The notes below the pieces were generated by a model that was not told the DNA's origin, searched no databases, and saw only the letters and a program-made list of their open reading frames with translations. Shown here piece after piece: positions 132 to 41,898 of a DNA stretch of 41,898 nucleotides. The DNA lies in the IMG/VR virus record IMGVR_UViG_3300037440_000669, positions 1-41,898 of that record. One strand, given 5' to 3'. How positions within the stretch are numbered: position 1 is the first letter of the stretch; every line of letters starts with the position of its first letter. This DNA is from a virus. Taxonomy: Duplodnaviria; Caudoviricetes. The position numbers were made by a program, and so were the translations under genes.

Positions 132-1591
132 CAGTCCAGCACGACGCGGCCGCGGGCGGGCTGAGCCCGGTAGGAGGCCGGTCGGATCAAGATCCGCCCG
201 ACGAGCGACCGCAGCGCCTGCTGGCGCTCGTGGGGCAGCATCTGCGGCCACAGCGCCACCAGGTGCTCGGCGAGCTGGACGGTCTGCTCTACCGGCCGCA
301 CCGCGGCGACCTCCTGGAGCTCGTCGAGCCGGCGGACCAGCTGCTGCTCGCTGGCGGCCAGCTGGGCCATGGTCGCCTCGTACACCGGGTCGGTGACCTG
401 CCCGCGTGCCCACCCGTCGGCCAGGCGGACCATCGCCGCCCGGGTGTCGGCGAGCTCCCGGTCGACCCGGGCGGCGTCTCCGCCGGCGCGTGCGGCCCGG
501 GCGGTGCGGCTGACCGCGGCGGCGACGTCGCCGCGCAGCCGCGCGATGTGCTCGGTGACCTGGCGGAGGATCTCGGCCTCGACGTAGGCCAGGGTGAGCA
601 TGCCGCAGCCGGCGCAGGTGCCGCGGCCCTGCCGGTGGTCGCGGCAGAACACGCCGTGGCCCCGCTCGCGACCGCCGGGGCGGCGCTGGGGGGTTACGCC
701 GGCGGCGCCCTCGCAGCGGCCGCAGACGGCCAGCCCGGTGATGGAGTAGCGGGCCTCGAGGACCCGGGAGGGGGTGCGCCGGTCGCGGCGGATTCGCCTC
801 TGCACGCGCTCCCACGTGGCCTGGTCGACCAGCGGTGGGTGGGCGTCCTGAACTTCGATCGGCTCGCCTCCGCGCGGCCGCAGCCGGACCGTCCCCCGGT
901 AGACCGTGTTGGCCAACAACCTCTTGAAGGCGCTCTCGGTGATGTGGGTATCGAGTTGGTCGCACAGGCGCCGGCGTACGACCCGCACGGGGTCGCCGGC
1001 GGCGTACTCCTCGAACGCGGCCTGGACGGCCGGCCCGGTGGCCTGGTCGGGCTGGAGCCTGCCGTCGGGGCCGCGGCGGTACCCGGCGGGTACGCGGCCG
1101 TGGTGCCGGCCGGCACGGGCCCGCGCGGCGATCGTCTGCCGCCACGCTCGGCCGACCTCCCGGGACCGGTACTGCGCGAGATTCAGGAGGTTGATCAGCA
1201 TCATCTCGCCGACGTCGGTGGAGGTGTCGATCGCCTCGCTGGCGGAGATCACCGTGACGCCATAGGACGTGAGCTCGCGAAGGAACAGCAGCGACTCCAG
1301 CACGTTGCGACCCAGCCGGCTGACGTCGTAGACGGCGATCGCGTCGATCTCCCGGCGCTCGGCGAGGCGCCGTATCCGCTCGATGCCCTCCCGGGCGAAC
1401 GTGGTCCCGGTGCGGTCGAGGTCCTGGACGACGTCGACTTCCCGCCAGCCGGCGGTCGCCCGGCGCATCGCGCCGAGCTGGACGTCCGGGGAGTGGAAGG
1501 TGTCGCCGGCGCGGCCCATCAGCGCGCTGACCCGGACGTAGAGAACCACCCGGCCCGGCTGGTCGGGGACCGCGGCAAGCCGGCGGGTCAA
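125..1591 (-). CDS. int: Large serine recombinase (phage integrase)
   Basis: N-terminal catalytic VLYVRVS and DVSRLGR motifs, recombinase domain, Zn ribbon (CGRC...C...C), coiled coil. TTG start overlaps the repressor TGA, and the stop lies 13 nt from the att core. Confidence 0.95.
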   Translation of the reverse strand: MTRRLAAVPDQPGRVVLYVRVSALMGRAGDTFHSPDVQLGAMRRATAGWREVDVVQDLDRTGTTFAREGIERIRRLAERREIDAIAVYDVSRLGRNVLESLLFLRELTSYGVTVISASEAIDTSTDVGEMMLINLLNLAQYRSREVGRAWRQTIAARARAGRHHGRVPAGYRRGPDGRLQPDQATGPAVQAAFEEYAAGDPVRVVRRRLCDQLDTHITESAFKRLLANTVYRGTVRLRPRGGEPIEVQDAHPPLVDQATWERVQRRIRRDRRTPSRVLEARYSITGLAVCGRCEGAAGVTPQRRPGGRERGHGVFCRDHRQGRGTCAGCGMLTLAYVEAEILRQVTEHIARLRGDVAAAVSRTARAARAGGDAARVDRELADTRAAMVRLADGWARGQVTDPVYEATMAQLAASEQQLVRRLDELQEVAAVRPVEQTVQLAEHLVALWPQMLPHERQQALRSLVGRILIRPASYRAQPARGRVVLDWL

Positions 1592-2812: not shown

Positions 2813-3697
2813 GTGAAACCCAACCTACCTGACCTACCTGAGCCGCCGGGATTGCCGCGGCTGATCGAGTTCGTGCGCGACCTGGCCGCGGACCGGGGGA
2901 TGCCGGAGTCGGTGGTGCTGGCACAGTCGCGCGCCGGGTACGACCCGGGCGACTCGCTGGCTGCCAGCTGGGGGGTCACCGAGGCCGAGCTGGACGGGCT
3001 GCACCAGGTGTACCTGGATGTGGAGCGGTTGGAGCGGTCCGGCTCGACCGGTCCGGACCGCGCCGCCGACACCCCGACCGTCGCGCAGCCCGAGGGGGTG
3101 TGCCGCTGGTGCGTGCTGGCCCGGCATGACCTGTGCATCGCGGCCGGCGGGTGGCCGTGCACGTGCGCGTGCGCGTGCCGGATGGCCGACGTCATGCTCG
3201 CCGAGACGGCCGGCCCGGGCGCTGATGGCGACCTGGACGAGCCCGACCGGTGCCCGCGATGCGGGGGTGGTCACGACCGCATCGATCGACGAGAGCCCTG
3301 CCCAACCGAGCCTGCCGCCGAGCCGTTGCGCGTGAAGCCGCACGCGGTCGCCGAGCCGTCGCGCGTGAAGACGGTGGCTGTTCAGCCGGGGCAGCGGGTC
3401 CGGGTTGGTGGCCACACCTACACGGTGATGGGCACGGAGACAGCGGCTTGGCTGCTGCCCCGGCAGCCGAAGGTGCCGACGGTCGGTAGCCGCGTGCGGT
3501 TGCTGGATGGCCGGCACACCGGAGTGGTGGTGGAGGTCCTGGACCGTTGCCCCCAGGCTGGTTGCCACCTGGGGGCGGTCAGGGTGCGGCGCGACCCCGG
3601 CAACTTCCCGGCGTGGCCGGTCGATGTCGGGTTGTGGCACCTGGGGCAGGCGATCCCGGTAGATGCCGCGTTCATCCCTGATGGGGACGGCCGGTGA
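2813..3697 (+). CDS. Hypothetical protein with Cys clusters and a beta-rich C-terminus
   Basis: AGGAG RBS; CxxC, CxCxC and CPRC motifs; stop overlaps the next start. Confidence 0.65.
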   Translation: MKPNLPDLPEPPGLPRLIEFVRDLAADRGMPESVVLAQSRAGYDPGDSLAASWGVTEAELDGLHQVYLDVERLERSGSTGPDRAADTPTVAQPEGVCRWCVLARHDLCIAAGGWPCTCACACRMADVMLAETAGPGADGDLDEPDRCPRCGGGHDRIDRREPCPTEPAAEPLRVKPHAVAEPSRVKTVAVQPGQRVRVGGHTYTVMGTETAAWLLPRQPKVPTVGSRVRLLDGRHTGVVVEVLDRCPQAGCHLGAVRVRRDPGNFPAWPVDVGLWHLGQAIPVDAAFIPDGDGR

Positions 3698-4308
3698 CCG
3701 CGGTGGTGCCGGCGCAGCGGGATCCGCAGCAGCAGCTGCGGGCGGCGGCGGCGGCCGGTGACCGGGTCGCGTTCGGGCAGTTGTGTGTGGCGGCACGCCC
3801 GCACGTGCTGCGGGTGGTGCTGCACCGCTGCGGGGATCGGCAGCTGGCCGAGGATGTGACGCAGGACGCGATCGCCAGGGCGTTGTCGCGGGCGTCGTCG
3901 TACCGGGATCTGGGCCGGCCGTTCGAGGCGTGGCTGGTGACGATCGCCTGCCGGCTGGTGGTCGACCACGCGAAGTCGGGGTGGCGCCGCTACATGGTGG
4001 CCGCCGGTGGGCCGGATGACCTGCCGCCGGCGCCGACGTCGCTGGGGCGGCCTGTTGTGGAGCCGGACGTGGTGGTGGTGGAGCGTCTGACCCATCTCGA
4101 GCATGCTCGGGTGCTGGCGGCTGCGCTGCGCTGCCTGAGCCGGCCGCAGCGCACGGTGCTGCAGCTGCGGTTCTGGCGGGGACTGTCCGTGGAGGACACG
4201 GCGGCGGCGATGGGGCTGTCCCGGGCGGCGTGTAAGGCGGTGCAGCACCGGGCGATCCGCACTCTGGCCCGCCAGGAGGCGCTCCGGTCTCTGCGGGCGG
4301 TGATCTGA
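3694..4308 (+). CDS. ECF sigma-70 factor, BldN-like
   Basis: Region 2 (AEDVTQD..RAL, FEAWLVTIA.RLVVDH.KS) and region 4 (LS..QR.VL.LRF..GLSVEDTA..MG......K..QHRA.RTL). Confidence 0.9.
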   Translation: MTAVVPAQRDPQQQLRAAAAAGDRVAFGQLCVAARPHVLRVVLHRCGDRQLAEDVTQDAIARALSRASSYRDLGRPFEAWLVTIACRLVVDHAKSGWRRYMVAAGGPDDLPPAPTSLGRPVVEPDVVVVERLTHLEHARVLAAALRCLSRPQRTVLQLRFWRGLSVEDTAAAMGLSRAACKAVQHRAIRTLARQEALRSLRAVI

Positions 4309-6429: not shown

Positions 6430-6703
6430 CCACTTCCTAGCCGGTGAGGAGCACCTGCGTTTGGCGGAAGACCTGTACCGCACGGGCGGAGACGACGAGA
6501 TCGTCGGCGGGCAGCTGGCGGCCGCGATCGCGCAGGCGCACTTCGCCGCGGCGACCGCGGCCGCGCTCGCCGAGCTGGAGGACAACCGCGCGGGAGACCA
6601 GCCGGTGCTGGGCCGGCCGTACGAGGCGAGTGACCGGTGGCGGCGGGTGCTCGTCGACGACCTGGACCCGGAGCTCGAGGGGTGGCGTGGCGATGGCACC
6701 TAG
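6416..6703 (+). CDS. Hypothetical protein
   Basis: GGAGG RBS; overlaps both neighbours. Confidence 0.6.
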   Translation: MRGPDHFLAGEEHLRLAEDLYRTGGDDEIVGGQLAAAIAQAHFAAATAAALAELEDNRAGDQPVLGRPYEASDRWRRVLVDDLDPELEGWRGDGT

Positions 6704-7313
6704 TGGGCGGCCGCGGCGGCTGGCCGGGCCGACGCGGCGGGAAGTGCTGCTGCGCTTCGCCCGCGGTGCGTCGGTGCGGGAGATCGCCGACGGCATGCCG
6801 GACGTGTCCAGTGAGGAGGTCGACCGGCTGCTGTTGGAGGTCGGCATGAACCGGCAGCGGGCGGCCGCACTGGTGCGGGAGGCCGCCGCAGCGCCGGCGG
6901 CGGTGGAGGTGGCGCCGGATGCGGTGCGCGTTGTGTCGGCGGAGGAGCTGCTGCGGCGGGCCGCCTCCGGGCCGCAGCGGCTCCAGACGTTGGCCGCGCG
7001 GATCGAGGCGTACCTGGACAAGCTGCGGGGGCAGCTGCTCGAGGAGGAACAGCTGGCCAAGGCGCGGGCGGAGGTCGCGGCCGCGCACGCCGCGCTGGAG
7101 CGGGCGACCCGGGAGCTTGCGGAGCGCACGGCGCTGCTGCGGGCGGGCCGGGTCCTGCGGGACCGGCCGGCGGAAGTCGACACGCGCTCGCGCCGGGCGG
7201 CGATCCGGGCGTGGGCGGCGGCGGAGGGCATCTCGTGCTCTCAGCGGGGGCGGATCGCTGTCGATGTGGAAGCGCGGTATGACCAGGCGCACGCCGGGGG
7301 GTCCGATGGATGA
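6693..7313 (+). CDS. Coiled-coil protein with C-terminal Lsr2-type DNA-binding domain
   Basis: C-terminal AAIRAWAAAEGISCSQRGRIAVDVEARYD matches the Lsr2 IR.WA...G..VS.RGRI signature. N-terminal HTH-like segment. Confidence 0.8.
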   Translation: MAPSGRPRRLAGPTRREVLLRFARGASVREIADGMPDVSSEEVDRLLLEVGMNRQRAAALVREAAAAPAAVEVAPDAVRVVSAEELLRRAASGPQRLQTLAARIEAYLDKLRGQLLEEEQLAKARAEVAAAHAALERATRELAERTALLRAGRVLRDRPAEVDTRSRRAAIRAWAAAEGISCSQRGRIAVDVEARYDQAHAGGSDG

Positions 7314-11695: not shown

Positions 11696-11969
11696 GGTGG
11701 AGACGGTGCTGGTCGACGGGGTCCGTTACGCCCGGGCCGCCGGCGTGCTGGCGCAGCTGGGCCCCGACGTCACCCTGGAGATGCTGCGGTGGTGGGCCCG
11801 TTCGGGTCAGGTGGCTCGGGTCTGGGATGGCCGGTGCTACTGGTACGACCTGGTCTCCGCTGCACACGCGGAACTGGCCGCGGCCGATTCAGGCCGCGGC
11901 CGGTTCCGTCGTGGACACACGGTGAATCAACGTCGATCTAGGCCTGGAGCTGGATCGCAGGCGGTGTGA
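11688..11969 (+). CDS. Small MerR/Xis-like HTH protein
   Basis: VTLEMLRWWARSGQV....DGRCYWYDL pattern. Confidence 0.65.
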   Translation: MPEVETVLVDGVRYARAAGVLAQLGPDVTLEMLRWWARSGQVARVWDGRCYWYDLVSAAHAELAAADSGRGRFRRGHTVNQRRSRPGAGSQAV

Positions 11970-12423
11970 CCACCCGGAACTCGAGCCGATTGATCTCGTG
12001 ATCGTCAATGGTGAAGACAAACGAGTACAGCCCCGGCATCGCAAAACTGACGCCATCGATGTTGACCGCGATCGGGATGTTCTGCCGGTCACCCGACTGG
12101 AGGTTCGGCGGCCGGCCGATGGTGAAGTCGGCATGCCCGTGGATCCGCAGCCCCTCGTGATCGGGCGGCACGAGCGCGCCATCGGGCGCAACACCCTGCC
12201 CATCCGCGGCCAAGAGGACGAACCCGAGGCGGTGCTGCTTGTTGGTCTGCGTGTAGGGCACGCCAACGACTGCGGCGAGCCCGACTCTCGCGATCTTGAC
12301 GGGGAGCTTGTCGCTGTTCACCATGTTCCAGCCGCCCCCCTGCACGTAGAGCTTCCCGTCCGCGGCCGCCGCACTGTCGGCGAGGATCGCGTCGAGGGTG
12401 AAGTCACCGCGATCGGTGGCCAT
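11938..12423 (-). CDS. Moron protein, beta-sandwich (DUF6941-like)
   Basis: AAGGAG RBS, own promoter, lower GC. Motifs ILAD.A...DGKLYVQGGGW and PG.YSF...ID..E..R..F.V. Confidence 0.75.
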   Translation of the reverse strand: MATDRGDFTLDAILADSAAAADGKLYVQGGGWNMVNSDKLPVKIARVGLAAVVGVPYTQTNKQHRLGFVLLAADGQGVAPDGALVPPDHEGLRIHGHADFTIGRPPNLQSGDRQNIPIAVNIDGVSFAMPGLYSFVFTIDDHEINRLEFRVVTPPAIQLQA

Positions 12424-12455
12424 GTCTCTCCTTCTTGTTGATCTTGATACTGCGC

Positions 12456-12540
12456 TGTAGTACAGGCTAGCGGGCCCTGTACGACGCTGTCAAGCTGAAG
12501 TTGGGGCTTCCGTATACGGCACGTGTCATGATGTACTACA
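12456..12540. promoter_or_regulatory. Divergent promoter region with inverted operator pair
   Basis: Minus strand TTGACA (12493-12488)-N18-TAGCCT (12469-12464). TGTAGTACA (12456-12464) and its reverse complement TGTACTACA (12532-12540). Confidence 0.7.
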
Positions 12541-12571
12541 GAAAACTCGCACGCGAAAGGGGGTTTAACCT

Positions 12572-12838
12572 ATGGGACGGGAAGCAAGAGGGTCGATCGT
12601 CTCCGTCCGGCTATCAGAGCAAGAGCAAATCCAGCTCCGGCAGATCGCTGAGAGCCGCGGTACCTCGATCTCGGAGGTCATTCGATCATACGTAGCAGGC
12701 GAAATGCATCCGACGCCTCTTGGCCAGACTGCGTCAGCACAACCAACCAACCCGAGTGTGCACATCGAAGGTGGGGTCCGCTGGCAGGCCGGTACTGAGG
12801 CTGTCGCCGATGGCACCAACCTAAACATGTGGTCGTAG
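12572..12838 (+). CDS. Ribbon-helix-helix (CopG-like) protein
   Basis: IVSVRLSEQE..QLRQIAESRGTSISEVIRSYV; AAAGGGGG RBS. Confidence 0.8.
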   Translation: MGREARGSIVSVRLSEQEQIQLRQIAESRGTSISEVIRSYVAGEMHPTPLGQTASAQPTNPSVHIEGGVRWQAGTEAVADGTNLNMWS

Positions 12839-14307: not shown

Positions 14308-15147
14308 GTGCCGGATGCTTTCTACTGGACCGAGCTCGCGACGGTGTACCAGGCCGACGCGCTCGTGGTCCTGCGGGAGCTGCCGGCGGCCTCGGCCGAC
14401 GCGGTCATCACCGACCCGCCCTATTCGTCGGGTGGCCAGTTCCGCTCAGACCGGATCCAGGGCGTGCACACCAAGTACGTGCAGACCGGCTCCGGCAGCG
14501 GTAACCGGTTGCCGGCGTTCACCGGCGACAACCGCGACCAGCATGGGTACGGGTACTGGTGTGCGCTGTGGCTCGGTGAGTGCCGCCGCATCGTGGTCCC
14601 GGGCGGCGTGATCGCGGTGTTCTGCGACTGGCGGCAGCTGCCGGTCACCTCGGACATGCTGCAGGCCGCCGGCATCGTATGGCGGGGGATCCTGCCCTGG
14701 CACAAGCCGAACGGCCGCCCGGTGCAGGGCCGGTGGGCCAATCAGTGCGAGTACGTGGTCTGGGGCACCAACGGGCCGCGGGCGCTCGGCATGCTCGGCT
14801 CACGTGCACTGGCCGGGTTTCTGCAGGCCAACCCGCCGCGAGTGCGTGACCACATCACGCAGAAGCCGCTGCAGATCATGCGGGAGCTGGTGAAGATCGC
14901 ACCGGTGGGCGGGGTGGTGCTCGACCCGTTCGCCGGCGCCGGCACCACCGGGGTCGCTGCGTTGCACGAGGGCCGCCGGTTCGTCGGGGTCGAGCAGGAC
15001 CCGCGGCATTGTGCGACGATCGCCCGCAACCTCGACGCCGCGCAGCTGATCGCCGGCCCGGCCGCCGACGTGCTGCCGCTGGATTGGGCGGCCGCGGCCG
15101 CCGGCGAGGCGGAGGGCGCCGGTGGCGAGGAAATCGCGGACGCCTGA
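14308..15147 (+). CDS. DNA amino-methyltransferase (N6A/N4C, beta-class motif order)
   Basis: TDPPY catalytic motif precedes H.TQKP and the VLDPFAGAGTTG SAM-binding motif. Confidence 0.93.
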   Translation: MPDAFYWTELATVYQADALVVLRELPAASADAVITDPPYSSGGQFRSDRIQGVHTKYVQTGSGSGNRLPAFTGDNRDQHGYGYWCALWLGECRRIVVPGGVIAVFCDWRQLPVTSDMLQAAGIVWRGILPWHKPNGRPVQGRWANQCEYVVWGTNGPRALGMLGSRALAGFLQANPPRVRDHITQKPLQIMRELVKIAPVGGVVLDPFAGAGTTGVAALHEGRRFVGVEQDPRHCATIARNLDAAQLIAGPAADVLPLDWAAAAAGEAEGAGGEEIADA

Positions 15148-20379: not shown

Positions 20380-21590
20380 GGGTGCCCGGCCGGGCAGCGG
20401 AGCGGTTCGACCCGTCCCAGCCGCGTGACGATGACGGCCGCTGGGCCAACGTCGCCGGCGCGATTACTGCGGTGATGGAGGACGGGCTGAGGCTGGCCGG
20501 CCGGGTCGGCCTGGACGCGGGGGAGCGGCTGGTGGCCAGCCGGCGGATGACCGGCCCGGGCCGCAACGACCTGGTGTGGGCGGTGACTGACTCGCCGGCC
20601 GGCCGGGAGCTGCGGCTGGGTGTGGTCGACCATGAGGACACGCCGCGGTGGCGGGCGGCGAACCTGGGCGGCACCGCCCGGCTGGACGTGGCCGGGATCT
20701 CCACGCTGCGCCGGCAGCTGGCCGCCGCGGCGGCCGCCGGCCGGCGGCATCAGGCGCAATGGCGGCGGCAGGCCGAACAGCCCGGCGCCACCGACCTGGA
20801 GCCGGATCCGCTGATCGCCGAGGGGACGGTGCCCGGTGCGCCCGGGTGGGGCCAGCTTGCGTGGCAGGTCAACGGCGTCGACGACGGTGGCGGCGGCTGG
20901 AGCGTGGATCTGGCGGTGCGGCCGCCGGAGGCGCCGGCCGGGTGGACGGTGGCAGACGCGATCAGCGAGGAGCGGGAGATGTCGCTGGATGCCCGGCAGG
21001 TCCACGGGCTGATCGGGCAGCTGGACCGTGTCGCTGGCGTTCCGGCCGCGGAGGCGTGGGATCCGACCCTGCACCCGCGCGGCCCGGATGGCCGGTTCAT
21101 CCGCCGCGGCATCGTGGCGGCGTTGCTGGGCCGGGCTGCCGGCACGGGCCGGTCGGCCGCCGGCGCGGCACGGCGGGCGGCCCGGGCCGTGGCCGCCAGG
21201 TTGCGGGCGGCCGCGGACACCGACGAGGCACGGGCGCTGATGGCGTCGCTGACGTTGCGTGCGCTGCAGGCGCTCACCGACGAGCTGGGGGTGCCCGGGT
21301 TGCCGTTTGCGACGCGCTCCGAGCTGGTGGAGCAGCTGGTGCGCAGTGCGTTCGTCCGGCGGGAGGCTGCCGCCGGGGACGACAACGCGTTGAAACGGTT
21401 CTGGACGAAGGACCCGGAGGGCCTGGCGAGGTGGGCGACCCGGCCGCATCCGTGGACGGCGCTGTACCGGCAGCTGGTAAAGCACATGCCGCCGGCGCCG
21501 GCGCGGCGGGTGGCCTCGGCCTGGTTCCACGAGGTGTTCGGGATCTGGCCGGGGGAGCGGGCCGGGGCCAACCCGACCGGGCCAGGCTGA
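20376..21590 (+). CDS. Multidomain head-region protein with two DP..PR...GR(F/W) tags
   Basis: GAGG RBS; ERFDPSQPRDDDGRW and EAWDPTLHPRGPDGRF; HeH/Rho-N-like helix pair; C-terminal LKRFWT...HE.FGIWPG domain. Confidence 0.7.
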   Translation: MRVPGRAAERFDPSQPRDDDGRWANVAGAITAVMEDGLRLAGRVGLDAGERLVASRRMTGPGRNDLVWAVTDSPAGRELRLGVVDHEDTPRWRAANLGGTARLDVAGISTLRRQLAAAAAAGRRHQAQWRRQAEQPGATDLEPDPLIAEGTVPGAPGWGQLAWQVNGVDDGGGGWSVDLAVRPPEAPAGWTVADAISEEREMSLDARQVHGLIGQLDRVAGVPAAEAWDPTLHPRGPDGRFIRRGIVAALLGRAAGTGRSAAGAARRAARAVAARLRAAADTDEARALMASLTLRALQALTDELGVPGLPFATRSELVEQLVRSAFVRREAAAGDDNALKRFWTKDPEGLARWATRPHPWTALYRQLVKHMPPAPARRVASAWFHEVFGIWPGERAGANPTGPG

Positions 21591-21604
21591 TGAGGGGAGG
21601 GCGT

Positions 21605-24427
21605 GTGGGCACCTGGCATGCGGCGGTGGAGGCTGCGGTGCGTAGGGAGGCGGAGGCGCTGGGCGTTGACGCCGGCGTGTTGCTCGCCGACCGGAACCTT
21701 GCCGAGGCGCTCGCGGAGCTTGCCGACCTGGAGCCTGGCACGGAGGCGCTCGACGTCGGGGTGGCCGCGGCGGTCGGGCACATGGTGGAGGCCGGCCGGG
21801 CGGTGCCGGCCGGCGCGGCGATGGTGGCGGCGATGCTGCCGGCCGACGTGGCTGAGGCGGTGGCCGTGGATGGTGGGCTGCCACCTGAGCAGCTGCACGT
21901 GACCCTGGCCTACCTGGGGGAGGAGCTGACCGCCGAGCAGCGGGAGGCCGCGGGCCGGGTGACCGGCGAGGTTGCCGGGCGGCATCCGCGGCTGGCCGGG
22001 CAGCTCGGCGGGCTGGGCCAGTTCCCGGCCGGTGAGGACGGGGTGCCGGTCTTCGCGCCGGTCGACGTGCCGGGCATGGTGGAGCTGCGGCAGGACCTGG
22101 TGCGGTCGCTGGCGGCTGCAGGGCTGCCGGTGCCGGCCGAGCATGACTTCACCCCGCACGCCACCCTGACCTACCTGGCCGGGGAGGGGGAGGCCACACC
22201 GGAGCCGGTGCCGCCGACACCGGTGGAGTTCGCCGCGTTGACGTTCGCGCAGGGCCGGGGTGAGCGGGTGGAGTTCCCGCTCGGTGCCCGGGAGGCGGCC
22301 GCCGGCGGGGTCACCGAGGTGCGGGACCGGATGGTCGGCCGGGTGGTCGAGGCGCGGGGCACGGACGGCTCCGGCGGCCGCGTGTTCCGGGTGCGGATCA
22401 TCCAGTGGGGGCAGTCCCGCAACCGCCGGTCGTATACGCAGCCGGTGATGGCGGCGGCGGCCCGCCTGTACGAGGGGGCCAAGGCCTACGACCACCACCG
22501 GTCGCCGGAGGAACTCAAGACTTCGACGATCAACGGTTTGGTGGGCCAGTACCGGCACGTGACCGTCGAGGCGGACGGCCTGTACGCGGACCTGCACCTG
22601 CTGCCCGGTGCGACGCACGCGGCGGAGGCGCTGGACGCGTCCCTCGCGGCGCAGGCCCGGGGGCTGCCGCCGCTGGTGGGGATCTCCCACGACGTGCTGG
22701 CCAGCTACCGGCCGGTGAACACCGGCCGCGGCCGCGTCGAGGAGGCCACGGCAATTCTCAAGGTCAACTCGGCGGACATCGTGGCCGACCCGGCCGCCGG
22801 TGGGATGCCGACCAGGATGCTCGCCGGCGGGACCGCCGGTGATGATGACGACCCGCAGAGCGCGGGAGAGAGTGAGGAGGGCGAGGTGCCAATTAAGAAG
22901 GCAGACGTGCTCGCCGCGCTGCGGGAGTGCGACGACCAGGAGCTCGCAGGCGTGGGCCTGTCCCGGGCCCCGGCCGGCGACGCCGGAGCACCGGCGGCGG
23001 CGCCGGCGGCTGGTGCTGTGGGTGGTGATGGTGCCTCCGCGGCCGCGCCCGCACCGGCGGCCGCGACCGAGGCGGTGCGGGGCACCGAGGCCGGCACCAT
23101 GCCCAAGGCGGGGTTCTTGGGCCAGATGATGATCCGGCACAAGGTCGAGTCGGCCGGGCTGCCGATCGGGGTGGTGCCGGAGCTGACCAAGGCGCTGCCC
23201 GAGCAGGTCACCGAGTCTGTGGTGGACGCGCAGGTGGCGGCGCTGCAGGCCGGTATCGGGGTGATCGAGCGGGCCGGGCTGGTCGGCGCGTCGGTGCTCG
23301 GCGCCAGCGGCGCGAAGGTCACCAAGGAGGCCACCGAGAAGAAGGCCACCGCGCTCGACAAGTTCTTCGAGGGCGACTACCGGGCCGGCTACCGGTCGTT
23401 CCGGGAGGCGTGGGCGGACTTCACCGGCTACCGGCCGCAGCAGTGGGGCGAGGACCTGAACCGGCGGATCCTGCGGGAGAGCTTCGGCGGCGGTTTCGAC
23501 TCGGCGGCGGTGCACGGTACCGAGTCGCTGGACTCGACGAGCTGGGCGCAGGTGCTCGGTGACAGCATCACCCGGCGCATGATCGCCATGTACTCGCAGC
23601 CGAGCCTGTCGACGTGGCGGAAGATCGTCTCCGATGTGATTCCGGTGACGGACTTCCGGCAGCAGCGCCGGGAGCGGGTCGGCGGGTACGGGCTGCTGCC
23701 GGTGGTGGCCGAGGGTGCCCCATACGCGCCGCTGGCGTCGCCGACCGACGAGGAAGCCGTGTACTCGATCATCAAGCGGGGTGGTCTGGACGACCTGACC
23801 CTGGAGATGATCGCGAACGACGACCTGGGCGCGATCCGGAACGTGCCGCGGGGGCTGGGCCTGGCGGCGGCGATCACGCTGTACCGGTTCATCTGGGACA
23901 TCCTGGCGACCAACACGGTGTGCACCTACGACACGGTGGCGCTGTTCAATGTGGCGCACAACAACACGGCCACGGCGGCATTGTCGAGCACGGCTCTGTC
24001 GGCGGCCCGGCAGCGGATGCGGCAGCAGGCGGCGTTCGGGCAGGCCACTAACATCCTGTCGCTGCGGCCGCGCACGCTGATCGTGCCCTCCGCGCTGGAG
24101 GAGCTGGCATTCCAGCTGGTCACCTCGGCGGTGGCGATCACGACGAACAGCGATGCGACGATCCCGAACCTGCACGCCGGGCTCGACCTGGAGGTCATCG
24201 ACTACTTCACCGACGCGGACGACTGGTTCCTGGCCGGCGACCCGGCGATGGTGCCGACCATCGAGGTCGGGTTCTACCAGGGCCGGGAGGACCCGGAGCT
24301 GTTCACCCAGGCCGACGAGAACGTCGGGTCGATGTTCAACGCGGACAAGCTGACCTACAAGATCAGGCACATCTATTCGGGGACGCCGCTGGACCACCGC
24401 GGCTTCCAGCGCGGCACCCAGCCGTGA
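21605..24427 (+). CDS. Head polyprotein: 2H phosphoesterase + prohead protease + scaffold + major capsid protein
   Basis: GGAGG RBS (alternative ATG 21590). HVT (21896) and HAT (22157) 2H motifs. Protease-like DHH, VGISH and SADIVADPAAGG. Mu gpT-like capsid C-terminus (EMIANDDLGA, LFN.AH.N, P..LIVP..LE, YKIRH.Y....D.RG). Confidence 0.88.
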   Translation: MGTWHAAVEAAVRREAEALGVDAGVLLADRNLAEALAELADLEPGTEALDVGVAAAVGHMVEAGRAVPAGAAMVAAMLPADVAEAVAVDGGLPPEQLHVTLAYLGEELTAEQREAAGRVTGEVAGRHPRLAGQLGGLGQFPAGEDGVPVFAPVDVPGMVELRQDLVRSLAAAGLPVPAEHDFTPHATLTYLAGEGEATPEPVPPTPVEFAALTFAQGRGERVEFPLGAREAAAGGVTEVRDRMVGRVVEARGTDGSGGRVFRVRIIQWGQSRNRRSYTQPVMAAAARLYEGAKAYDHHRSPEELKTSTINGLVGQYRHVTVEADGLYADLHLLPGATHAAEALDASLAAQARGLPPLVGISHDVLASYRPVNTGRGRVEEATAILKVNSADIVADPAAGGMPTRMLAGGTAGDDDDPQSAGESEEGEVPIKKADVLAALRECDDQELAGVGLSRAPAGDAGAPAAAPAAGAVGGDGASAAAPAPAAATEAVRGTEAGTMPKAGFLGQMMIRHKVESAGLPIGVVPELTKALPEQVTESVVDAQVAALQAGIGVIERAGLVGASVLGASGAKVTKEATEKKATALDKFFEGDYRAGYRSFREAWADFTGYRPQQWGEDLNRRILRESFGGGFDSAAVHGTESLDSTSWAQVLGDSITRRMIAMYSQPSLSTWRKIVSDVIPVTDFRQQRRERVGGYGLLPVVAEGAPYAPLASPTDEEAVYSIIKRGGLDDLTLEMIANDDLGAIRNVPRGLGLAAAITLYRFIWDILATNTVCTYDTVALFNVAHNNTATAALSSTALSAARQRMRQQAAFGQATNILSLRPRTLIVPSALEELAFQLVTSAVAITTNSDATIPNLHAGLDLEVIDYFTDADDWFLAGDPAMVPTIEVGFYQGREDPELFTQADENVGSMFNADKLTYKIRHIYSGTPLDHRGFQRGTQP

Positions 24428-32489: not shown

Positions 32490-33857
32490 ATGAGCGACCC
32501 GCTATACATCAACGCCGGCAGGGATGCGCTGGTGGGGACGGCGACCATTGAGGCCGACAACGAGCTGCTGACGATCGCCGGTCACGGCCTGGTCGCCGGC
32601 GACACCGTGACCGTGGACAGCCTGACCGGTGGGGCGGCCGGGGTTCTGGTGGTTGACGCCGTCTATTTCGTCCGCGACGCCACGACCGACTCGTTCGGGT
32701 TGTCGCTGACTCCGCACGGACCTTTGATCGTCTTCGCTGCTGATGGCGGGGCCGATGTGTACCGGTACGCGCCGCAGTACCACGCGGCCGAGATGCGCCG
32801 CCTGCTCGGTGGGTTGTTGCAGCGCGGCGACGCGTTGGGCGGCTTCGCCGCCCGCAGCGGTTTGTTCCCGAACGGTAGCGTGGTTAGCGGCGCGAGCGCC
32901 GCCAGCCTGTCGGGTACGACGTGGACGGTGCATAACGTTACCGGGGTGATTCACACCGGGATCACCTCGCTCACCGGTCCGTACCTGTTCGCGCATCCAG
33001 AAGAATCCGGCAGTGTCGTTCCTGCTGACGCCACCAACCCGCGCATCGACGCCCTGGACCTGCAGATCCAGGACCATGACCAGGACGGGTCGGGCTTCCG
33101 CCGTGCCCGGGTGGTGTATGCCACGGGCGTGCCCGGGGTGTCGCCGGCCGATCCGCCGGTGACCGCGAATTCACTTCGGGTGGCGACGATCCTGGTGCCG
33201 GCCAACGGCTCTCCGTCACCGACGTTGACGGTTGTTGCGCCGTATACCGTCGCGGTTGGCGGCACCATCCCCGTACGCGACAGCGACGACTACCCGGGCG
33301 CAGGCGGGCGCTACCAGGGCATGTTGCTGTGGGACGTTGCCCAGGGCGCGCTTGTTGTCAACCAGAACGCGGGCGGGACGTGGGTGCCGATCGGCGGACC
33401 CGGCGCGTCCCCGCCTACCGTGCAGGATTTCGACGACGTTAGCATCTTCCAGTTCACAAACACCGCCTTCGATGTGCTCAGCTCAAGCGGCATCTATGTG
33501 GACTGCGGTGTCGCATTCGTTGCGCCGATCTCCGGCCGGGTCATGATCCACTGGACTGTGGCGTTGGATATCGTTTCCGGCACCAACGCCGTCGCCTATT
33601 GCAGCCCGGTCGTCCGCACTGGCGGGACCGTCGGCTCGGGGTCGGTCGTTCTCCCCGCGGCGGACAACAACTCCAGGCGGGTTTCGCGCTCCTCCGTGGG
33701 CACCGATGATGGTGGCAGCCGCAACCGGTCGGGTGCTTCGTATCTGCTGGAGAGCCTGACCGCAGGCAATACGTACAACGTACGCCTGGAGCACCGGGTG
33801 ACCAGCCAGACCGGGGAGATGTTCCACCGCGCGGTCCAGGTGGTCCCGGCCACATGA
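32490..33857 (+). CDS. Minor tail protein
   Basis: AD.TNPRID...L.I.D and G.P..SP..P...L.VA.I.VPA module; visibly lower-GC C-terminal domain. Confidence 0.75.
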   Translation: MSDPLYINAGRDALVGTATIEADNELLTIAGHGLVAGDTVTVDSLTGGAAGVLVVDAVYFVRDATTDSFGLSLTPHGPLIVFAADGGADVYRYAPQYHAAEMRRLLGGLLQRGDALGGFAARSGLFPNGSVVSGASAASLSGTTWTVHNVTGVIHTGITSLTGPYLFAHPEESGSVVPADATNPRIDALDLQIQDHDQDGSGFRRARVVYATGVPGVSPADPPVTANSLRVATILVPANGSPSPTLTVVAPYTVAVGGTIPVRDSDDYPGAGGRYQGMLLWDVAQGALVVNQNAGGTWVPIGGPGASPPTVQDFDDVSIFQFTNTAFDVLSSSGIYVDCGVAFVAPISGRVMIHWTVALDIVSGTNAVAYCSPVVRTGGTVGSGSVVLPAADNNSRRVSRSSVGTDDGGSRNRSGASYLLESLTAGNTYNVRLEHRVTSQTGEMFHRAVQVVPAT

Positions 33858-36304
33858 CCGTCATCAGCCTATGGGTGGGTGCGCTTAGCCACGGGGGTGC
33901 CCGCGTCCGGGCCAAGCTCAGCGGCGTGACGTCCGCACGGCTGGCGGTCGACACCGACGCCGCTTTCTCCGCCCCGGTGTTCTTCGGTCCTGCTTCTCCG
34001 ACCGGCGACGGGGTTGTGAGCATCGACGCCTCGGGGCTCGATCCCGGCGGCACGTACGTTTTCGCGATCGAGGAAGACTCGGTCCTCAATACCGGCACAA
34101 CCGGCCGGTTCCGCACCGCACCGGTCCCGGCCGGGCAGCCGGCGTCGTTCAGCTTCATCGCGTCGGGTGATGCCGGGCTCACACCGGACTTCCCGGACAC
34201 GACCGGCCTGGTACTGGCCTCGGCCAGGATTTCGAACGCACCGACCTTCGACACCATCCGCGAGCACCCGTCCGATCCGCTGTTCTTCATGCATTTGGGC
34301 GACCTGCATTACTACGACCTGGGGTCTGGGTCTCACGGGATCGTCGGCGGCGGCAGCTTGGGCAACTACCGCCGCGCGATCGACGACGTGCTGCTGCAGA
34401 GCCGCCAGCATGAGCTGTACCGAAGCGTGCCGCTGGTTTATATGTGGGACGACCACGACTTCGGGCCGAACAACTCGGACGGGACGCTGTCCACGAAGGG
34501 CAACGCGGCCACCGCGTATCGGGAGCGGGTGCCGTCGTACGCGCTGCCCGATCCTGGTGCGGCCTATCAAAGCTTTCCCATCGGGCGGGTTCTGTTCGTG
34601 GTGCTCGACACGCGGTTCTACCGCTCGCCCAACGGGGCTGCGGACGGCCCGTCCAAGACGATGCTCGGATCGAATCAGAAGGCGTGGCTCGCGCAGCTGC
34701 TGAGCGAGTCGACGGCCGAGGTCATGGTCATGGTGTCGTCTGTCCGGTGGATCAACGGGTCGAGCGACTCCTGGCCGGGTTTCGCGACCGAGCGGCAGGA
34801 GATCGCCGACTTGCTGGTGTCTACCGGCTGGGCTGACCGTATGGTCATGATCAACGCGGATGTGCACGCGTTGGCGTTCGACAGCGGCGCGAACAACGAC
34901 TGGGGCGGGTTTCCGGTCTACGTGGTGGGCTCGGTTGACGCCACCCCGTTTTCTCCTACCCCGAGCAGCTACGACCGGGGTGCTTCTGTGGAGCGCGACC
35001 AGTACGGTGGCTTCCAGGTAACGGACAACGGCGCGTCGATAACTATCACTGCACAGGGCTACCTGGGCACGACGGCCGTGATCAGCCACACATTTGTCAT
35101 TGGTGCCACAGACCCGGAGCCACCCCCGCCGCCGGCGCCGCCTGCCGGGCTTCCCACAGTTGCGGTGGCGACCGTCCGCAGCCGGGTGGTGTGGCTGGGC
35201 TGCGACCTGGTGTCCGGTCGTATGATCGCGCAGCTGCACGACGTGGCAGCCACCCCGAGCCGGGTGCTGGGGGCATACACCTCCACCGAGGCGGTGTTGC
35301 CGATCCCGCTGGGCGGGCCGGCGGCGCTCGGGCCGCTGGCGTTCCAAGCGACCGAGCCGCCCCGGACCATGCTGGTGCTGGTTGTCAACGACCTGCCGGT
35401 GTACGCCGGCATACCGCTGCCGCGTGAGGGTGGGACCGACCCGACCCTGCAGCTGGGGCTGATGTCGATCGAGGGCTACCTGGAGCACCGGTTCGTCCGC
35501 GACCACGTTTGGGTGCAGCAGGACGAGGCGTCGGTCATCGCGGCCGGGCTGTTCGCCGACGCCGCTGCTCTGCCCGGAATCGGCGGTGAGGGTATCGGTC
35601 TGATCGTCGACGCGCCGCCCACCGGCACCCGGCGGGACCGGACGTACAAGGCCAGCGACCACAAGTCGGTGTACGAGTCGTTGCAGGAGCTGATGGCCGT
35701 TGAGGGCGGCCCGGAGTGGACGATCGACCTGGATTGGGCCGACGCCGCCGCCCGCAACACGGTTTCGAAGATCGCCCGCGTGCGGCCACGCATCGGTGTC
35801 GCGGCCTCCCAACCGTCGGCGCTGTTCGTGACCACCGCCCGGTCGGTGTACGGGTCGACCGGCCAGGCCAACGCCCGGTACCGGTACAAGGAGGATTTCG
35901 GCGGCGGCCGCTACGCCAACGTGGTGCAGGCGTACTCCAGCGGTGAGGGAGACGACCAGCCGCACTCGGACCTGGCCGTGGACACGGCCGCGTTGGCCGC
36001 TGGTGTGCCGATCTGGGAGCGGCACTACCAGCCGTCCTCCAGCATCACCAACCTGGCCACCCTGAACGCCCATGCGCGGGCCGAGCTGGGCCGGCGGCGT
36101 CTCGGGTCGCGGCTGTGGGCGATCGAGGCGCGGTGGGACGCCACGCCCCGCTACGGGATCGACTGGCGCCTGGGCGACGACGTGGCCTGGCACCTGGTGG
36201 GGCACCGCCACCCGGACGGTGTGCGCGGCCAGGGCAGGGCGGTCGGGTTCGAGCTGGACACCGCCCGCGGGGTGATCGTCCCGATCTTGGAGGGGGAGGA
36301 GTAG
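33854..36304 (+). CDS. PhoD-like metallophosphoesterase fused to tail hub (Tal/Gp37-like) protein
   Basis: FN3-like N-terminus, HLGDLHYYD, WDDHDFG.N, LDTR.YR, TMLG..QK.WL, DSW.GF..ER, ADVH. Pro linker, then hub domain ending W.LGD.V. Confidence 0.82.
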   Translation: MTVISLWVGALSHGGARVRAKLSGVTSARLAVDTDAAFSAPVFFGPASPTGDGVVSIDASGLDPGGTYVFAIEEDSVLNTGTTGRFRTAPVPAGQPASFSFIASGDAGLTPDFPDTTGLVLASARISNAPTFDTIREHPSDPLFFMHLGDLHYYDLGSGSHGIVGGGSLGNYRRAIDDVLLQSRQHELYRSVPLVYMWDDHDFGPNNSDGTLSTKGNAATAYRERVPSYALPDPGAAYQSFPIGRVLFVVLDTRFYRSPNGAADGPSKTMLGSNQKAWLAQLLSESTAEVMVMVSSVRWINGSSDSWPGFATERQEIADLLVSTGWADRMVMINADVHALAFDSGANNDWGGFPVYVVGSVDATPFSPTPSSYDRGASVERDQYGGFQVTDNGASITITAQGYLGTTAVISHTFVIGATDPEPPPPPAPPAGLPTVAVATVRSRVVWLGCDLVSGRMIAQLHDVAATPSRVLGAYTSTEAVLPIPLGGPAALGPLAFQATEPPRTMLVLVVNDLPVYAGIPLPREGGTDPTLQLGLMSIEGYLEHRFVRDHVWVQQDEASVIAAGLFADAAALPGIGGEGIGLIVDAPPTGTRRDRTYKASDHKSVYESLQELMAVEGGPEWTIDLDWADAAARNTVSKIARVRPRIGVAASQPSALFVTTARSVYGSTGQANARYRYKEDFGGGRYANVVQAYSSGEGDDQPHSDLAVDTAALAAGVPIWERHYQPSSSITNLATLNAHARAELGRRRLGSRLWAIEARWDATPRYGIDWRLGDDVAWHLVGHRHPDGVRGQGRAVGFELDTARGVIVPILEGEE

Positions 36305-37014: not shown

Positions 37015-38013
37015 GTGGCACGTTGGACTGACCTGGCCCGCTGGGTGGGGCCGTCGCCGAACAGGACTGCCGGCGGCATGGTGGAGGTGCGCGGCCTGGT
37101 GCTGCACATCGCCGTCGGCTGGTATGACGGCACGATCGCCTGGCAGCTCAACCCGGACAGCGACGTGTCGTCGCACTTCATCGCCGGCCGCGACCAGGGC
37201 GAGCTGGCGCAGATGGTCGACACCGCCGACCGGGCCTGGACGCAGGGCGACGGCAACGGCCGGTGGCTCTCCTCCGAGAACGAGGGGTTCCTCGCCTCCG
37301 ACAGCCGCAACCCGGGCGGCTGGGAGCGGCTGTCGAGCTGGCAGGTCGAGGCCAACGCGCAGCTGTTCGCCCGCGGCCACCTCGAGTACGGCTACCCGCT
37401 CAAGGTGGCCGACCACCCGGGCGAGCTCGGCCTGGGCCACCACTCGATGGACCGGGAATGGCTCGACGAGCAGTGGGGGCACGACCAGTGCCCTGGTGCG
37501 GCGATCGTCGCACAAAAACCGGAGATCGTCCGCCGGGCGATCGAAATCGTGGAAGGAAGCGGTATGCCACTCACGGACGCGGACGCACGGCTGGTCGCTC
37601 GGCACGTCTGGAAGGACGACGTCGTGAGCTCCCCGGTCAGCGCCGCGACTCACAAGAGCAACCCGGAATGGCAGGCGGAGTCGTACCTGGCCTCGATCCG
37701 GAACCACGCGGTCTGGGCACGTGACGACATCAGCGCGCTGCGGGAGCTGGTCGTGGCCACGCTGGCGGCCCGCGAGGACCTCGATACCGGGCAGATCCTG
37801 ACCCGGCTCGACGAGCACGCGGCCGCGGCCGCAGCCGCACGGCAGGCGCAGACGGACCAGATGGAGGCCACCCTGGCCAGGATGGGCCCGGAGCTGGCCG
37901 AGGAGCTGCGGGAGGTACCCGTCGACCGGGTCGAGCAGGCGTTCGTGAACGTGCTGTCGCGGGTCGCGTTCAGCGTCGCCCCGGCTGGGAGCTCCGTACC
38001 GGAGCCGCAGTGA
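37015..38013 (+). CDS. Endolysin, N-acetylmuramoyl-L-alanine amidase (Amidase_2)
   Basis: AGGAGG RBS; VLHIA, SSHF, AW.Q..GN, S.ENEG, GHH and CPG motifs. Confidence 0.9.
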   Translation: MARWTDLARWVGPSPNRTAGGMVEVRGLVLHIAVGWYDGTIAWQLNPDSDVSSHFIAGRDQGELAQMVDTADRAWTQGDGNGRWLSSENEGFLASDSRNPGGWERLSSWQVEANAQLFARGHLEYGYPLKVADHPGELGLGHHSMDREWLDEQWGHDQCPGAAIVAQKPEIVRRAIEIVEGSGMPLTDADARLVARHVWKDDVVSSPVSAATHKSNPEWQAESYLASIRNHAVWARDDISALRELVVATLAAREDLDTGQILTRLDEHAAAAAAARQAQTDQMEATLARMGPELAEELREVPVDRVEQAFVNVLSRVAFSVAPAGSSVPEPQ

Positions 38014-38846: not shown

Positions 38847-38886
38847 GCGGCCCCGGTCCTCCCAACGTGGGAGGGACCGGGGCCGC
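38847..38886. terminator. Bidirectional hairpin between convergent genes
   Basis: gcggccccggtcc/ggaccggggccgc stem with inner ctccca/tgggag. Confidence 0.8.
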
Positions 38887-38897: not shown

Positions 38898-39803
38898 TCA
38901 GGTGGTGAACCGGGTCCACCTGCGCCGCGTGGCGCGTAGCACGCCGGCGCCGGCGGCGAGCAGCACCGTGCCACCGAGCAGCAGCAGCGGCAGTGGGGCT
39001 CCGGTCTTGGGAAGCCCGCCGCCGTCGCCATCGCCGTCCTGGCCGTTGTCATCGCCATCGCCGTCCTGGCCGTTGTCGCCGTTGCCGGCGGGCAGGGTCT
39101 CGCAGGCGATCCCGTCGCCGTCGGCGTCCAAGCCGTGCGGGTCGGACGGGTCGGCGTCGAGTACCGCCTGCGCCTCCGGCTGTGTGGCGAAGTCGGCGCA
39201 GTTGAGGTCGTCGCCCGGCGGGGGGCTCTGGCCGCCGGTACCGTCATCACCCTGGTCGGTGCAGCCTTCGGCCGCGTCGAGCAGGGCGGTCTTCTCGGCC
39301 TGGTCGACCGACAGCGACCATTCGACCTTGACGGCCACGTACGCCTGGACGTAGGTGCAGACCGCGGCCTCGTTCGGGGGTAGCCATTCGGCCGCGTCGT
39401 CGTCGCCCTTGGACTGGTTGAGGTTGTCGGTCATCAGCCAGAGGTTCGAGGTGTCGCCGGTGAATTGGTCGCGCTGGCTGTCGCTCCAGCCGTTGGCGCC
39501 GGAGTCCCAGGCTTCGGCCAGCGCGACGATGTGGTCGACGTCGACTTCACCAGCGTCGGTGTAGCACTGGTCGTCGGCGAACGAGTAGTACCCGTCGCAG
39601 TCTGGCCAGTCGGCGAGGTTGGCGTCGAGCTGGGCTGGCCGGTCGAAGTCGCCGAACAGGTCCCGGTCGTAGCCGGTGCGGTCCTCCACGGCGACGTTGA
39701 GGCTGTTGATGTCACCTGGGAGGTCCGCCTGCGCTGGCCCGGCTAGGGCGAGGGCGCCTGCGGCCAGGCCGAGGGCCGCCGCTGCGGCCAACTTCTTGAT
39801 CAC
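38898..39803 (-). CDS. Secreted, sortase-anchored DUF1524/HNH-type nuclease with Excalibur Ca-binding domain
   Basis: GAGGAG RBS; signal peptide ending AQA; DVDHIVALAEAWDSGA, NL.....N.SKGD, EWLPP; DLNCADF...LDADGDGIACE; LPKTG + TM + RRR tail. Confidence 0.88.
   Translation of the reverse strand: MIKKLAAAAALGLAAGALALAGPAQADLPGDINSLNVAVEDRTGYDRDLFGDFDRPAQLDANLADWPDCDGYYSFADDQCYTDAGEVDVDHIVALAEAWDSGANGWSDSQRDQFTGDTSNLWLMTDNLNQSKGDDDAAEWLPPNEAAVCTYVQAYVAVKVEWSLSVDQAEKTALLDAAEGCTDQGDDGTGGQSPPPGDDLNCADFATQPEAQAVLDADPSDPHGLDADGDGIACETLPAGNGDNGQDGDGDDNGQDGDGDGGGLPKTGAPLPLLLLGGTVLLAAGAGVLRATRRRWTRFTT
39025..39077. repeat. 27-bp-period tandem repeat (DNGQDGDGD linker)
   Basis: tcgccatcgccgtcctggccgttgtc occurs twice. 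Confidence 0.8.
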
Positions 39804-39884
39804 TCTGTTCTCCTCTCGCGCGCCGGCGGCTGTCGCCGGCGTTTGCTCCCCTGTGAGGTCATCGTGACGCCTGGGGACCGTATC

Positions 39885-40172
39885 TCACTCTGTGTCACGT
39901 TCGCTACCGTCTGTCCGGTCCACTACGGGTGGGCCTTCCGGGTGGCAGAGCAGGTCACCTGGTGAGGTGTGCGTCCGCGGGTGGTACACGGTGGCGATGA
40001 TGATCAGCCCATCTGTGCGGGGCTCGGTGCGCGTCGACTCGAGCACGTCCCAACCCTCCCGGCGCAGGATCTTCGCCTCCTCCCAGGCCGTTTGCCGGTT
40101 CGGCCATGGCCGGGAGCAGGTTTCCGCCGCGTCAGCGGCGGTGATGCGCGGTTCGCCGATCGTGTCCGCCAT
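39885..40172 (-). CDS. Hypothetical protein
   Basis: AGGGGGG RBS before ATG 40172; lies between the leftward promoter and the nuclease gene. Confidence 0.6.
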   Translation of the reverse strand: MADTIGEPRITAADAAETCSRPWPNRQTAWEEAKILRREGWDVLESTRTEPRTDGLIIIATVYHPRTHTSPGDLLCHPEGPPVVDRTDGSERDTE

Positions 40173-40267
40173 GGACCCCCCTACGGGTTGGCCGGCCTGG
40201 CCGTCGACGCCGGGCAGCGAACGAGGCCAGGCCGGGTACCCCCAGAGCCACCCGGGGGACAGGCGGG

Positions 40268-40297
40268 AACCTATATCATGGGCGTGACATAGGTCAA
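40268..40297 (-). promoter_or_regulatory. Leftward housekeeping-type promoter overlapped by an inverted repeat
   Basis: TTGACC (40297-40292)-N18-TAGGTT (40273-40268); ACCTAT (40269-40274) and ATAGGT (40289-40294). Confidence 0.65.
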
Positions 40298-40361
40298 GAG
40301 GAGCATCGACATGCAGCAGGTCGTCGTGGCAGACTCGCCCGTGCCACCCGGGGAGTTGACC

Positions 40362-40604
40362 ATGCCACCACGCAGTCTCACCTACCGCGAGATCGCAGAC
40401 GACATCCATACCCGCATTGCCAGGTCGGAGGCCGGTTACCGGCCCGGTGACCAGCTGCCGTCGTACGCGGGCCTGGCCGAGCTTTACTCGGTCAGCGTGT
40501 CGACCGCGGCGCGGGCTGTCGGGTTGCTCACCGACCGGGGGGTCATCGAGTCGGTGATCGGCCGCGGCGTGTACGTGCGTGAGCCTGACGCCGGGCGGAA
40601 GTAG
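40362..40604 (+). CDS. GntR-family winged-HTH-only regulator
   Basis: YREIADDI..RI.....PGDQLPS...LA..Y.VS..T..RA...L...G.I....GRGVYV. Confidence 0.9.
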   Translation: MPPRSLTYREIADDIHTRIARSEAGYRPGDQLPSYAGLAELYSVSVSTAARAVGLLTDRGVIESVIGRGVYVREPDAGRK

Positions 40605-41308: not shown

Positions 41309-41671
41309 ATGCTCCCGGTCATGTCTGTTACCCGATGGATACTCAGCGGCACAGTCGTCGTCTGGGTGGTCTACCTGACCGCCACTATGTCCGGAGTGCG
41401 GCCGCTGCCGGATACCCCGGCCCGGCCTGCCATCCTGGCTGCCCTGGCTGTGGCGACCGTGCTGGTCGGCGCGGCTGCTCTGATCGAGCATGCCGTGCGA
41501 GAGGTGGAGGCGTGCGCCGGCACCATCGCCTACCGCGCCGGGTACCGCGCCGGCTACTCGGCCGGCTCAGCCGGCCGGCCAGCGACCCCACGGCCGTTAG
41601 CCGGCCTCGACGGTGCCATCGTCGACGCCGGGGTCCGCATCAGCCGCCGCCTGGGTACCGGCGACGGTTGA
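41309..41671 (+). CDS. Two-TM membrane protein
   Basis: Two hydrophobic helices; YRAGYRAGYSAG repeat; in-frame TTA at 41597. Confidence 0.6.
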   Translation: MLPVMSVTRWILSGTVVVWVVYLTATMSGVRPLPDTPARPAILAALAVATVLVGAAALIEHAVREVEACAGTIAYRAGYRAGYSAGSAGRPATPRPLAGLDGAIVDAGVRISRRLGTGDG

Positions 41672-41751: not shown

Positions 41752-41790
41752 GCTGTTAGCCGACCTGCACCGTGGTCTCCGGTGGCGCGT
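41752..41790. other. attR (core GTGGT 41772-41776)
   Basis: Phage/host junction; DprA coding resumes in the core. Confidence 0.88.
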
Positions 41791-41898
41791 TCGGCGTCGA
41801 CGCCTACGCGCACCGGGGAGCGCTCGCGGCGGGCGGGACCACGGTGGTGGTGCTGGCCTGCGGCGTGGACCGGCCATACCCGCTCGCCCATGCCAACC
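41772..41898 (+). pseudogene. dprA: dprA 3' fragment; continues beyond the window
   Basis: [37 protein letters not shown] is the DprA core motif. An in-frame TAG at 41757-41759 means the phage supplies no replacement N-terminus. Confidence 0.95.

Follow-up and report, generated by a model that had tools for sequence, protein, structure and literature searches.

A dprA-splitting prophage encodes a predicted wall-anchored DUF1524/HNH nuclease

The 41,898-nucleotide stretch of viral DNA analysed here, from now on referred to as the window, holds an integrated phage that splits dprA and carries, behind its lysis genes and divergent from a GntR-family regulator, a DUF1524/HNH nuclease gene with a multi-domain layout and an intact catalytic motif. 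With slightly better than even confidence, we read its product as a predicted wall-fixed extracellular HNH DNase that would degrade DNA at the cell surface and was gained as accessory cargo independently of dprA insertion. The preliminary description of this DNA had combined a wall-anchored nuclease moron with loss of DprA into one possible two-lock strategy against foreign DNA. Its first half stands, as the protein is predicted to be secreted and likely sortase-anchored and its gene lies in a moron-type position, while the coupling found no backing from co-occurrence in tests of low power. New here are a predicted sortase-anchored subclade of this nuclease family, carried by a phage in each of the two members whose context is known, and a serine integrase clade with members in dprA, tadA and a second ssb copy.

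An element integrated in dprA

CheckV rates the virus record that makes up the window as 88% complete, and both of its ends lie inside dprA. The host dprA 5′ part (1-111) leads into the attL core GTGGT (107-111, plus strand), and the attR core GTGGT (41772-41776, plus strand) opens the 3′ part (41772-41898). Joined across this core, the pieces are in register and meet at Pfam positions 77/78, with positions 44-77 encoded at 2-109 and positions 78-117 at 41772-41897, confirming that a prophage interrupts dprA. The phage arms flanking the core are imperfectly symmetric, and the nuclease gene lies between the two att cores. A Micromonospora DprA shares 82% and 80% identity with the two dprA parts, and the named matches of the window integrase are mostly from Micromonospora, so the host is likely a member of the Micromonosporaceae.

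The record may stem from either of two sediment runs, which were compared at the right junction. In both, the phage contig agrees with the window up to 41776 and then continues with different sequence for 714 letters or more, and the dprA 3′ part is found on separate, deeper contigs (depth 35.5 vs 14 in one run and 91.9 vs 10.8 in the other). In run X2, the loose end of the dprA 3′ contigs reads as intact dprA. These right-junction contigs and depths therefore suggest that the population contains excised phage and empty sites.

Further features of the prophage include an ECF-type sigma factor (3694-4308), an Lsr2-like DNA-binding domain (6444-7313), a DNA methyltransferase (14308-15147) and a fusion of the major capsid protein with a 2H phosphoesterase (2′-5′ RNA ligase-like) domain plus a region resembling proteases (20648-24427). 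Running antisense to the integrase, the dprA 5′ piece continues as a frame of 542 open codons (2-1630), which is probably a shadow frame.

Domain organization and fold of the nuclease

The nuclease gene (38898-39803, minus strand) encodes 301 amino acids, begins with GTG and has an AGGAG motif 6 nt 5′ of its start. The span given in the preliminary description, 38898 to 40604, shares one boundary with this gene; 40604 is the end of the divergent GntR gene. The remaining layout agrees with that description and is borne out by Pfam matches and sequence patterns. A predicted Sec signal peptide covers residues 1-26 (39726-39803, minus strand), judged by its basic-hydrophobic-AQA pattern and hydropathy, with a helix at 2-20 in the structural model. 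The catalytic domain (residues 27-181; 39261-39725, minus strand) contains cysteines at 69, 80, 149 and 181 and matches PF07510 over residues 85-176 (E 1.9e-13, 50.9 bits vs a cut-off of 23). It is followed by an Excalibur calcium-binding domain (PF05901; residues 201-235; 39099-39203, minus strand; E 4.9e-6, above cut-off), and the architecture also includes an acidic linker and a C-terminal sorting signal (38901-39014, minus strand) made up of LPKTG at residue 264, a hydrophobic helix at 268-292 and an RRRW tail at 293. The anchor models of Pfam and NCBIfam did not match the window nuclease; both weakly matched its homologue in the phage G001, which is described below. Searches of PHROG, NCBIfam and PADLOC returned no family for the nuclease.

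Alignments of 18 and 28 rows show H91 in every row and conservation of at least 90% for D90 and N129. We take D90-H91 (39536-39531) and N129 (39419-39417) to be the catalytic residues of a beta-beta-alpha motif, as in the family generally. The catalytic domain is very acidic, with 34 aspartate and glutamate residues vs 7 lysine and arginine residues, which may reflect adaptation to a saline habitat or a limit on activity. Judged by sequence, the protein is a putative DNase, a predicted secreted member of the DUF1524 (His-Me finger group 3) nucleases.

An AlphaFold model of the nuclease has a mean pLDDT of 81, exceeding 90 over the catalytic domain. Structural comparison of the model ranks V. 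cholerae endonuclease I first, with Z 10.2, an rmsd of 3.1, 129 aligned residues and 12% identity; the second-best match reaches Z 5.5, and the match to BrxU is weak (Z 3.5). Foldseek gave no match at E 0.001 and weak HNH rows only, the sequence has no match in the PDB, and the endonuclease I Pfam family does not match the protein at E 0.01. The endonuclease I-like fold of the model fits an extracellular DNase-type action.

Genomic surroundings of the nuclease gene

As noted before, the gene is antisense to the late genes, converging on the lysis region with its amidase (37015-38013, plus strand). Between the converging genes lies a GC hairpin (38847-38886) with a weak U tract. Its claimed strength is confirmed (z -5.85; 0 of 200 shuffles as stable), and it is likely a terminator; the U run is short, and the hairpin is absent from the output of a terminator scan.

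On the other side of the nuclease gene lie an ORF of 95 amino acids belonging to no known family (39885-40172, minus strand), a TTGACC-N18-TAGGTT promoter-like site (40268-40297, minus strand) and the GntR-family regulator (40311-40604, plus strand; Pfam). The window contains 2 matches to TTGAC-N17-19-TANNNT vs 0.20 expected, a number reached by 1 of 100 shuffles; a sigma-70 scan, which is stricter than this site, called no promoter. An inverted repeat, ACCTAT/ATAGGT, overlaps the site and is a possible GntR operator. While the promoter-like site reported earlier is thus present, a promoter directly adjacent to the nuclease was rejected: the nuclease start is about 465 nt downstream, and the site first serves the 95-aa ORF. 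This ORF and a GC hairpin intervene over that distance, so any direct control of the nuclease by the site is putative. Of the marks of a moron, namely its own orientation, promoter and terminator, the antisense orientation and the hairpin are seen at the gene itself.

A second such site, TTGACA-N18-TAGCCT (12464-12493), precedes a minus-strand gene (11941-12423) that is divergent from a ribbon-helix-helix gene and has no Pfam, PHROG or PADLOC match; this region (11941-12838) falls in the lowest-GC kilobase of the window (0.63). For the ORF at 41309-41671, BLASTP gave no support for homology to a matching ORF in G005.

A predicted sortase-anchored subclade on phages

A quick tree of 68 nuclease domains places the close homologues on their own branch (31 rows, SH-aLRT 99), apart from the sampled chromosomal Micromonosporaceae copies. 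An L[PA]xTG motif is found in 11 of 29 homologues with at least 50% domain identity and in none of the 73 below. As the anchored subclade is distinct from the host chromosomal copies, it may do something that those do not. With this query, no subclade member was found at E 1e-38 in 391 class-wide genomes (the G001 homologue scores 5e-62).

The only other member found in viral contigs (L001) belongs to G001, a complete 94.9-kb phage, and is 53% identical overall and 69% in the domain. As in the window, its gene follows the lysis genes and is divergent from GntR; ahead of it lie a small ORF, different from that of the window, which overlaps the nuclease start, and a TTGACT-N18-TACTCT site. In the protein, the sorting signal is LPVTG, and the place of Excalibur is taken by a ComEA-like HhH domain; such a domain suits DNA capture at the surface. 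The serine integrase of G001 is unrelated to that of the window (25%); relatives of the G001 integrase at 43-50% adjoin, as read by eye, genes with no part in competence (VOC-like, SDR-like, Smr-like and peptidase-like). In both phages with an anchored nuclease, a PhoD-like phosphodiesterase domain is joined to a minor tail protein (window 33854-36304; L001 15873-18257).

Two prophages that split ssb likewise have GntR close to their att end; they lack the nuclease and have FtsK/TraB-like genes there. The GntR region is therefore a variable cargo slot. FtsK/TraB-like and neighbouring membrane genes are located beside GntR in L231 (14744-17604), L242 (12069-16311) and L001 (4651-9159). This suggests that the related prophages and G001 are phage-conjugative hybrids; the window has GntR but lacks these other genes.

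Eight other viral loci were examined, and in 2 of them (actinophage records L041 and L049) an unanchored DUF1524 nuclease lies just after the amidase; related nucleases are also present on near-complete viral records of 112-116 kb and in Vibrio and Rhodococcus phages. Six loci (L031, L038, L040, L043, L046 and L058) form a tight DUF1524 clade apart from the anchored subclade; the viral records that carry them are about 110 kb long where complete. Elsewhere, genes beside DUF1524 nucleases include a Cas6-like CRISPR-associated gene (L036, 8988-9605) and a DpdA/Vut_1 pair (L098, 11695-13289).

The integrase clade and its targets

The large serine integrase of the window (125-1591, minus strand) is sister to two tadA-associated Micromonospora integrases with support of 100/98 in a 25-row tree, from which 5 partial or duplicate loci were omitted. 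Relatives in viral contigs were found by an alignment scan, a single-sequence scan having found none. Related integrase elements split tadA, located after ssd, in L002 (9318-9644) and L003 (from 50 letters only), and a second copy of ssb in L004 (11436-12314), L005, L013 and L015 (11532-12266); a further element (L012) lies in a mechanosensitive-channel-like gene. A single serine integrase clade is found to split three transformation-related genes in Micromonosporaceae, namely dprA, tadA and the second ssb. The ssb gene is cut after about 8 codons, so its 3′ part might be restarted. No dprA piece was found at 29 loci with integrase relatives (26-67% identity), few of which inform on the site because about 8 end right after the integrase gene and many are circular.

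The yraN-comM-dprA operon is a repeated insertion target. Serine integrase elements occupy comM in three viral records (L270, L273 and L275), and recombinase remnants mark two loci (L215 and L220, in G349 and G234) that have lost comM and the 5′ part of dprA. A 4.3-kb element with two tyrosine integrases and no nuclease splits the dprA of G403 (L210) near position 141-149, and L211 (G353) is a decayed locus.

Association between the nuclease and dprA insertion

Comparing nuclease carriage with dprA insertion, the check proposed with the two-lock reading, gave no association in either direction, at low power. The tests scored the DUF1524-family nuclease only, and both the nuclease and the DprA search matched the window as positive controls. 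Among 15 viral records whose integrases are related to that of the window (5 of them at least 90% complete), none carries the nuclease, and it is found in 0 of 5 related genomic elements, all 5 genomes encoding it on contigs other than that of the integrase. It is likewise found in 0 of 3 records in which comM, just upstream of dprA, is split, and in 0 of 5 records searched. Conversely, a DprA piece is present in 0 of 80 nuclease-bearing viral records; among 79 of these, 67 are less than 90% complete and 8 are classed as provirus, and circular ones carry no host flank.

A dprA screen covered 401 family genomes, 391 of which gave a match; among these, the best-matching copy was inspected in the 15 genomes where that match was weakest. 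None of the 15 loci is split at Pfam position 77/78, several being contig breaks. DprA scans of viral contigs gave 17 loci from 13 records and no second dprA-split prophage, leaving the window as the only such prophage in the comparison. Overall, these co-occurrence tests are weak, and the two-lock pairing of the nuclease with the dprA site is unproven. The absence of the nuclease from all 15 records and all 5 genomic elements with related integrases gives it the patchy distribution of a moron, and because related phages have one trait without the other, it is likely ordinary extra cargo.

Possible roles of the nuclease

The background of the likely host family was surveyed by tallies. Up to six of the genomes counted (G071, G112, G144, G204, G218 and G222) are marked as unpublished; they contribute to the counts alone, and no single one carries a claim. 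The nuclease family is encoded by 392 of 401 Micromonosporaceae genomes and dprA by 391 of 401, while comEC is present, as a gene, in 95 of 101. Sortases are encoded by 149 of 151 genomes in a sample of the family. On the reading we favour, transcription in the lysogen would start at the promoter divergent from GntR and pass through the 95-aa ORF into the nuclease gene, and the nuclease would be exported by Sec and attached to the wall by a host sortase. It would then cut free DNA at the lysogen surface non-specifically and aided by calcium, and the benefit would be a general one, i.e. clearing or feeding on extracellular DNA. Since loss of DprA already blocks a step downstream, lower DNA uptake would be a side effect, and an anti-transformation effect of this kind is plausible.

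It is doubtful that the nuclease is instead kept because it lowers DNA uptake, backing the dprA knockout and guarding the prophage from curing by transformation. Each tactic has separate precedent in the available parts of two reviews (PMC12378983, PMC4774983), the fold resembles endonuclease I, and comEC and dprA are widespread in the family. Further, integrase relatives split tadA and the second ssb, other elements lie in comM, and intact dprA alleles in the same samples mean that curing DNA is available. RecO is reported to be able to replace DprA in B. subtilis (PMC4824099), so the knockout may leak. Against these points, the nuclease and dprA insertion do not co-occur, the closest phage homologue is paired with an unrelated integrase, the hosts already encode the nuclease family, and no description of natural transformation in Micromonosporaceae was found in the literature searched, most subscription papers lying outside it. 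This explanation keeps a low probability because the integrase clade favours transformation genes and intact dprA is nearby, but no finding links the nuclease to that site. Its widest form is speculative and decidedly doubtful: Micromonosporaceae might be cryptically transformable, with phages countering by a retargeted integrase clade (dprA, tadA, second ssb) and an anchored DNase subclade, one member of which is fused to a ComEA-like domain, and the window element having both locks.

The wider insertion pattern matters more than the locus itself. Repeated insertion of related integrases into dprA, tadA, ssb and comM of Micromonosporaceae, if borne out, would point indirectly to natural DNA uptake by these antibiotic producers, a testable idea that would be of use to their genetics.

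Unlikely as well is a phage-centred role in which the enzyme clears DNA around lysing or neighbouring mycelium, aiding virion spread or the recycling of nucleotides and phosphate. The position right after the lysis genes recurs in the window, L001, L041 and L049, the PhoD-tail fusion of both anchored-form phages would join the same economy, and related nucleases occur on the 112-116 kb viral records and in Vibrio and Rhodococcus phages; however, the antisense orientation and terminator-like hairpin set the gene apart from the late operon, and a wall anchor holds the enzyme on living cells. That the gene is a silent or neutral passenger, rarely expressed or weakly active, would agree with the very acidic catalytic domain, the hairpin between the 95-aa ORF and the nuclease and possible GntR repression, but is quite improbable given its intact ORF, ribosome-binding site, conserved motif, GC3 of 0.90 like that of core genes and the matching arrangement found in a distant phage. 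A defensive role, against superinfecting phages or the entry of conjugative DNA, to which the moron position and a PF07510 domain common to GmrSD restriction enzymes might point, is very improbable, as there is no GmrS domain or PADLOC match and DNA that enters by injection or conjugation is protected from enzymes at the surface.

Comparison with known systems

GmrSD type IV restriction enzymes share PF07510 with the window nuclease, which differs in its predicted export, its weak match to BrxU (Z 3.5) and its lack of a GmrS (ParB/Srx) domain: only PF07510 and Excalibur were found in the protein, no GmrS domain was found in the scanned neighbours, and PADLOC gave 0 matches. A GmrSD-type defence was rejected on these grounds.

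Element-borne DNases that lower transformation have been reviewed (PMC12378983, PMC4774983, PMC11472951). Examples given in the accessible parts of the first two include Dns and CJE0566/CJE1441 of C. jejuni CJIEs, IdeA/SxnA of V. cholerae ICEs, YokF of a B. subtilis prophage and streptodornases. In common with the Dns/IdeA type, the window has a predicted secreted DNase on an integrated element, with V. cholerae endonuclease I as the best match of its model. In contrast to that type, it matches another Pfam family, is predicted to be wall-anchored and comes from a host not known to be transformable.

Insertion into dprA by large serine recombinases is likewise known, from aggregate data. The sections of PMC10083194 consulted list DNA_processg_A for 9 of 1069 target genes and for none of 908 in the background (FDR 0.032), as well as T2SSE (15 vs 2) and SSB (7 vs 0, FDR 0.065). 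Elements of that study and the window have dprA insertion in common, and integrases related to that of the window split tadA and ssb; Micrococcus luteus needs its tad genes for transformation, as stated in the available text of PMC4322843. A single clade using dprA, tadA and ssb was not seen in the same sections of PMC10083194, whose supplements, as far as covered, name one Salinispora integrase and no Micromonospora or Actinoplanes.

With separate prophage DNases and competence-gene insertions already known, the single pieces of this locus are unsurprising. Neither a pairing of such a nuclease with dprA insertion nor a sortase-anchored DUF1524 nuclease on a phage was described in the same body of literature, again with most subscription papers outside it. 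Putative extracellular His-Me finger group 3 (DUF1524) nucleases with an Excalibur domain have been described (PMC5714182, in the portion consulted), and the window nuclease shares their catalytic family, Excalibur domain, membrane helix and predicted export. Unlike them, it adds an LPXTG sorting signal and sits on a prophage, so that the locus contributes a phage-borne, predicted wall-anchored DUF1524 variant together with a defined attachment site in dprA.
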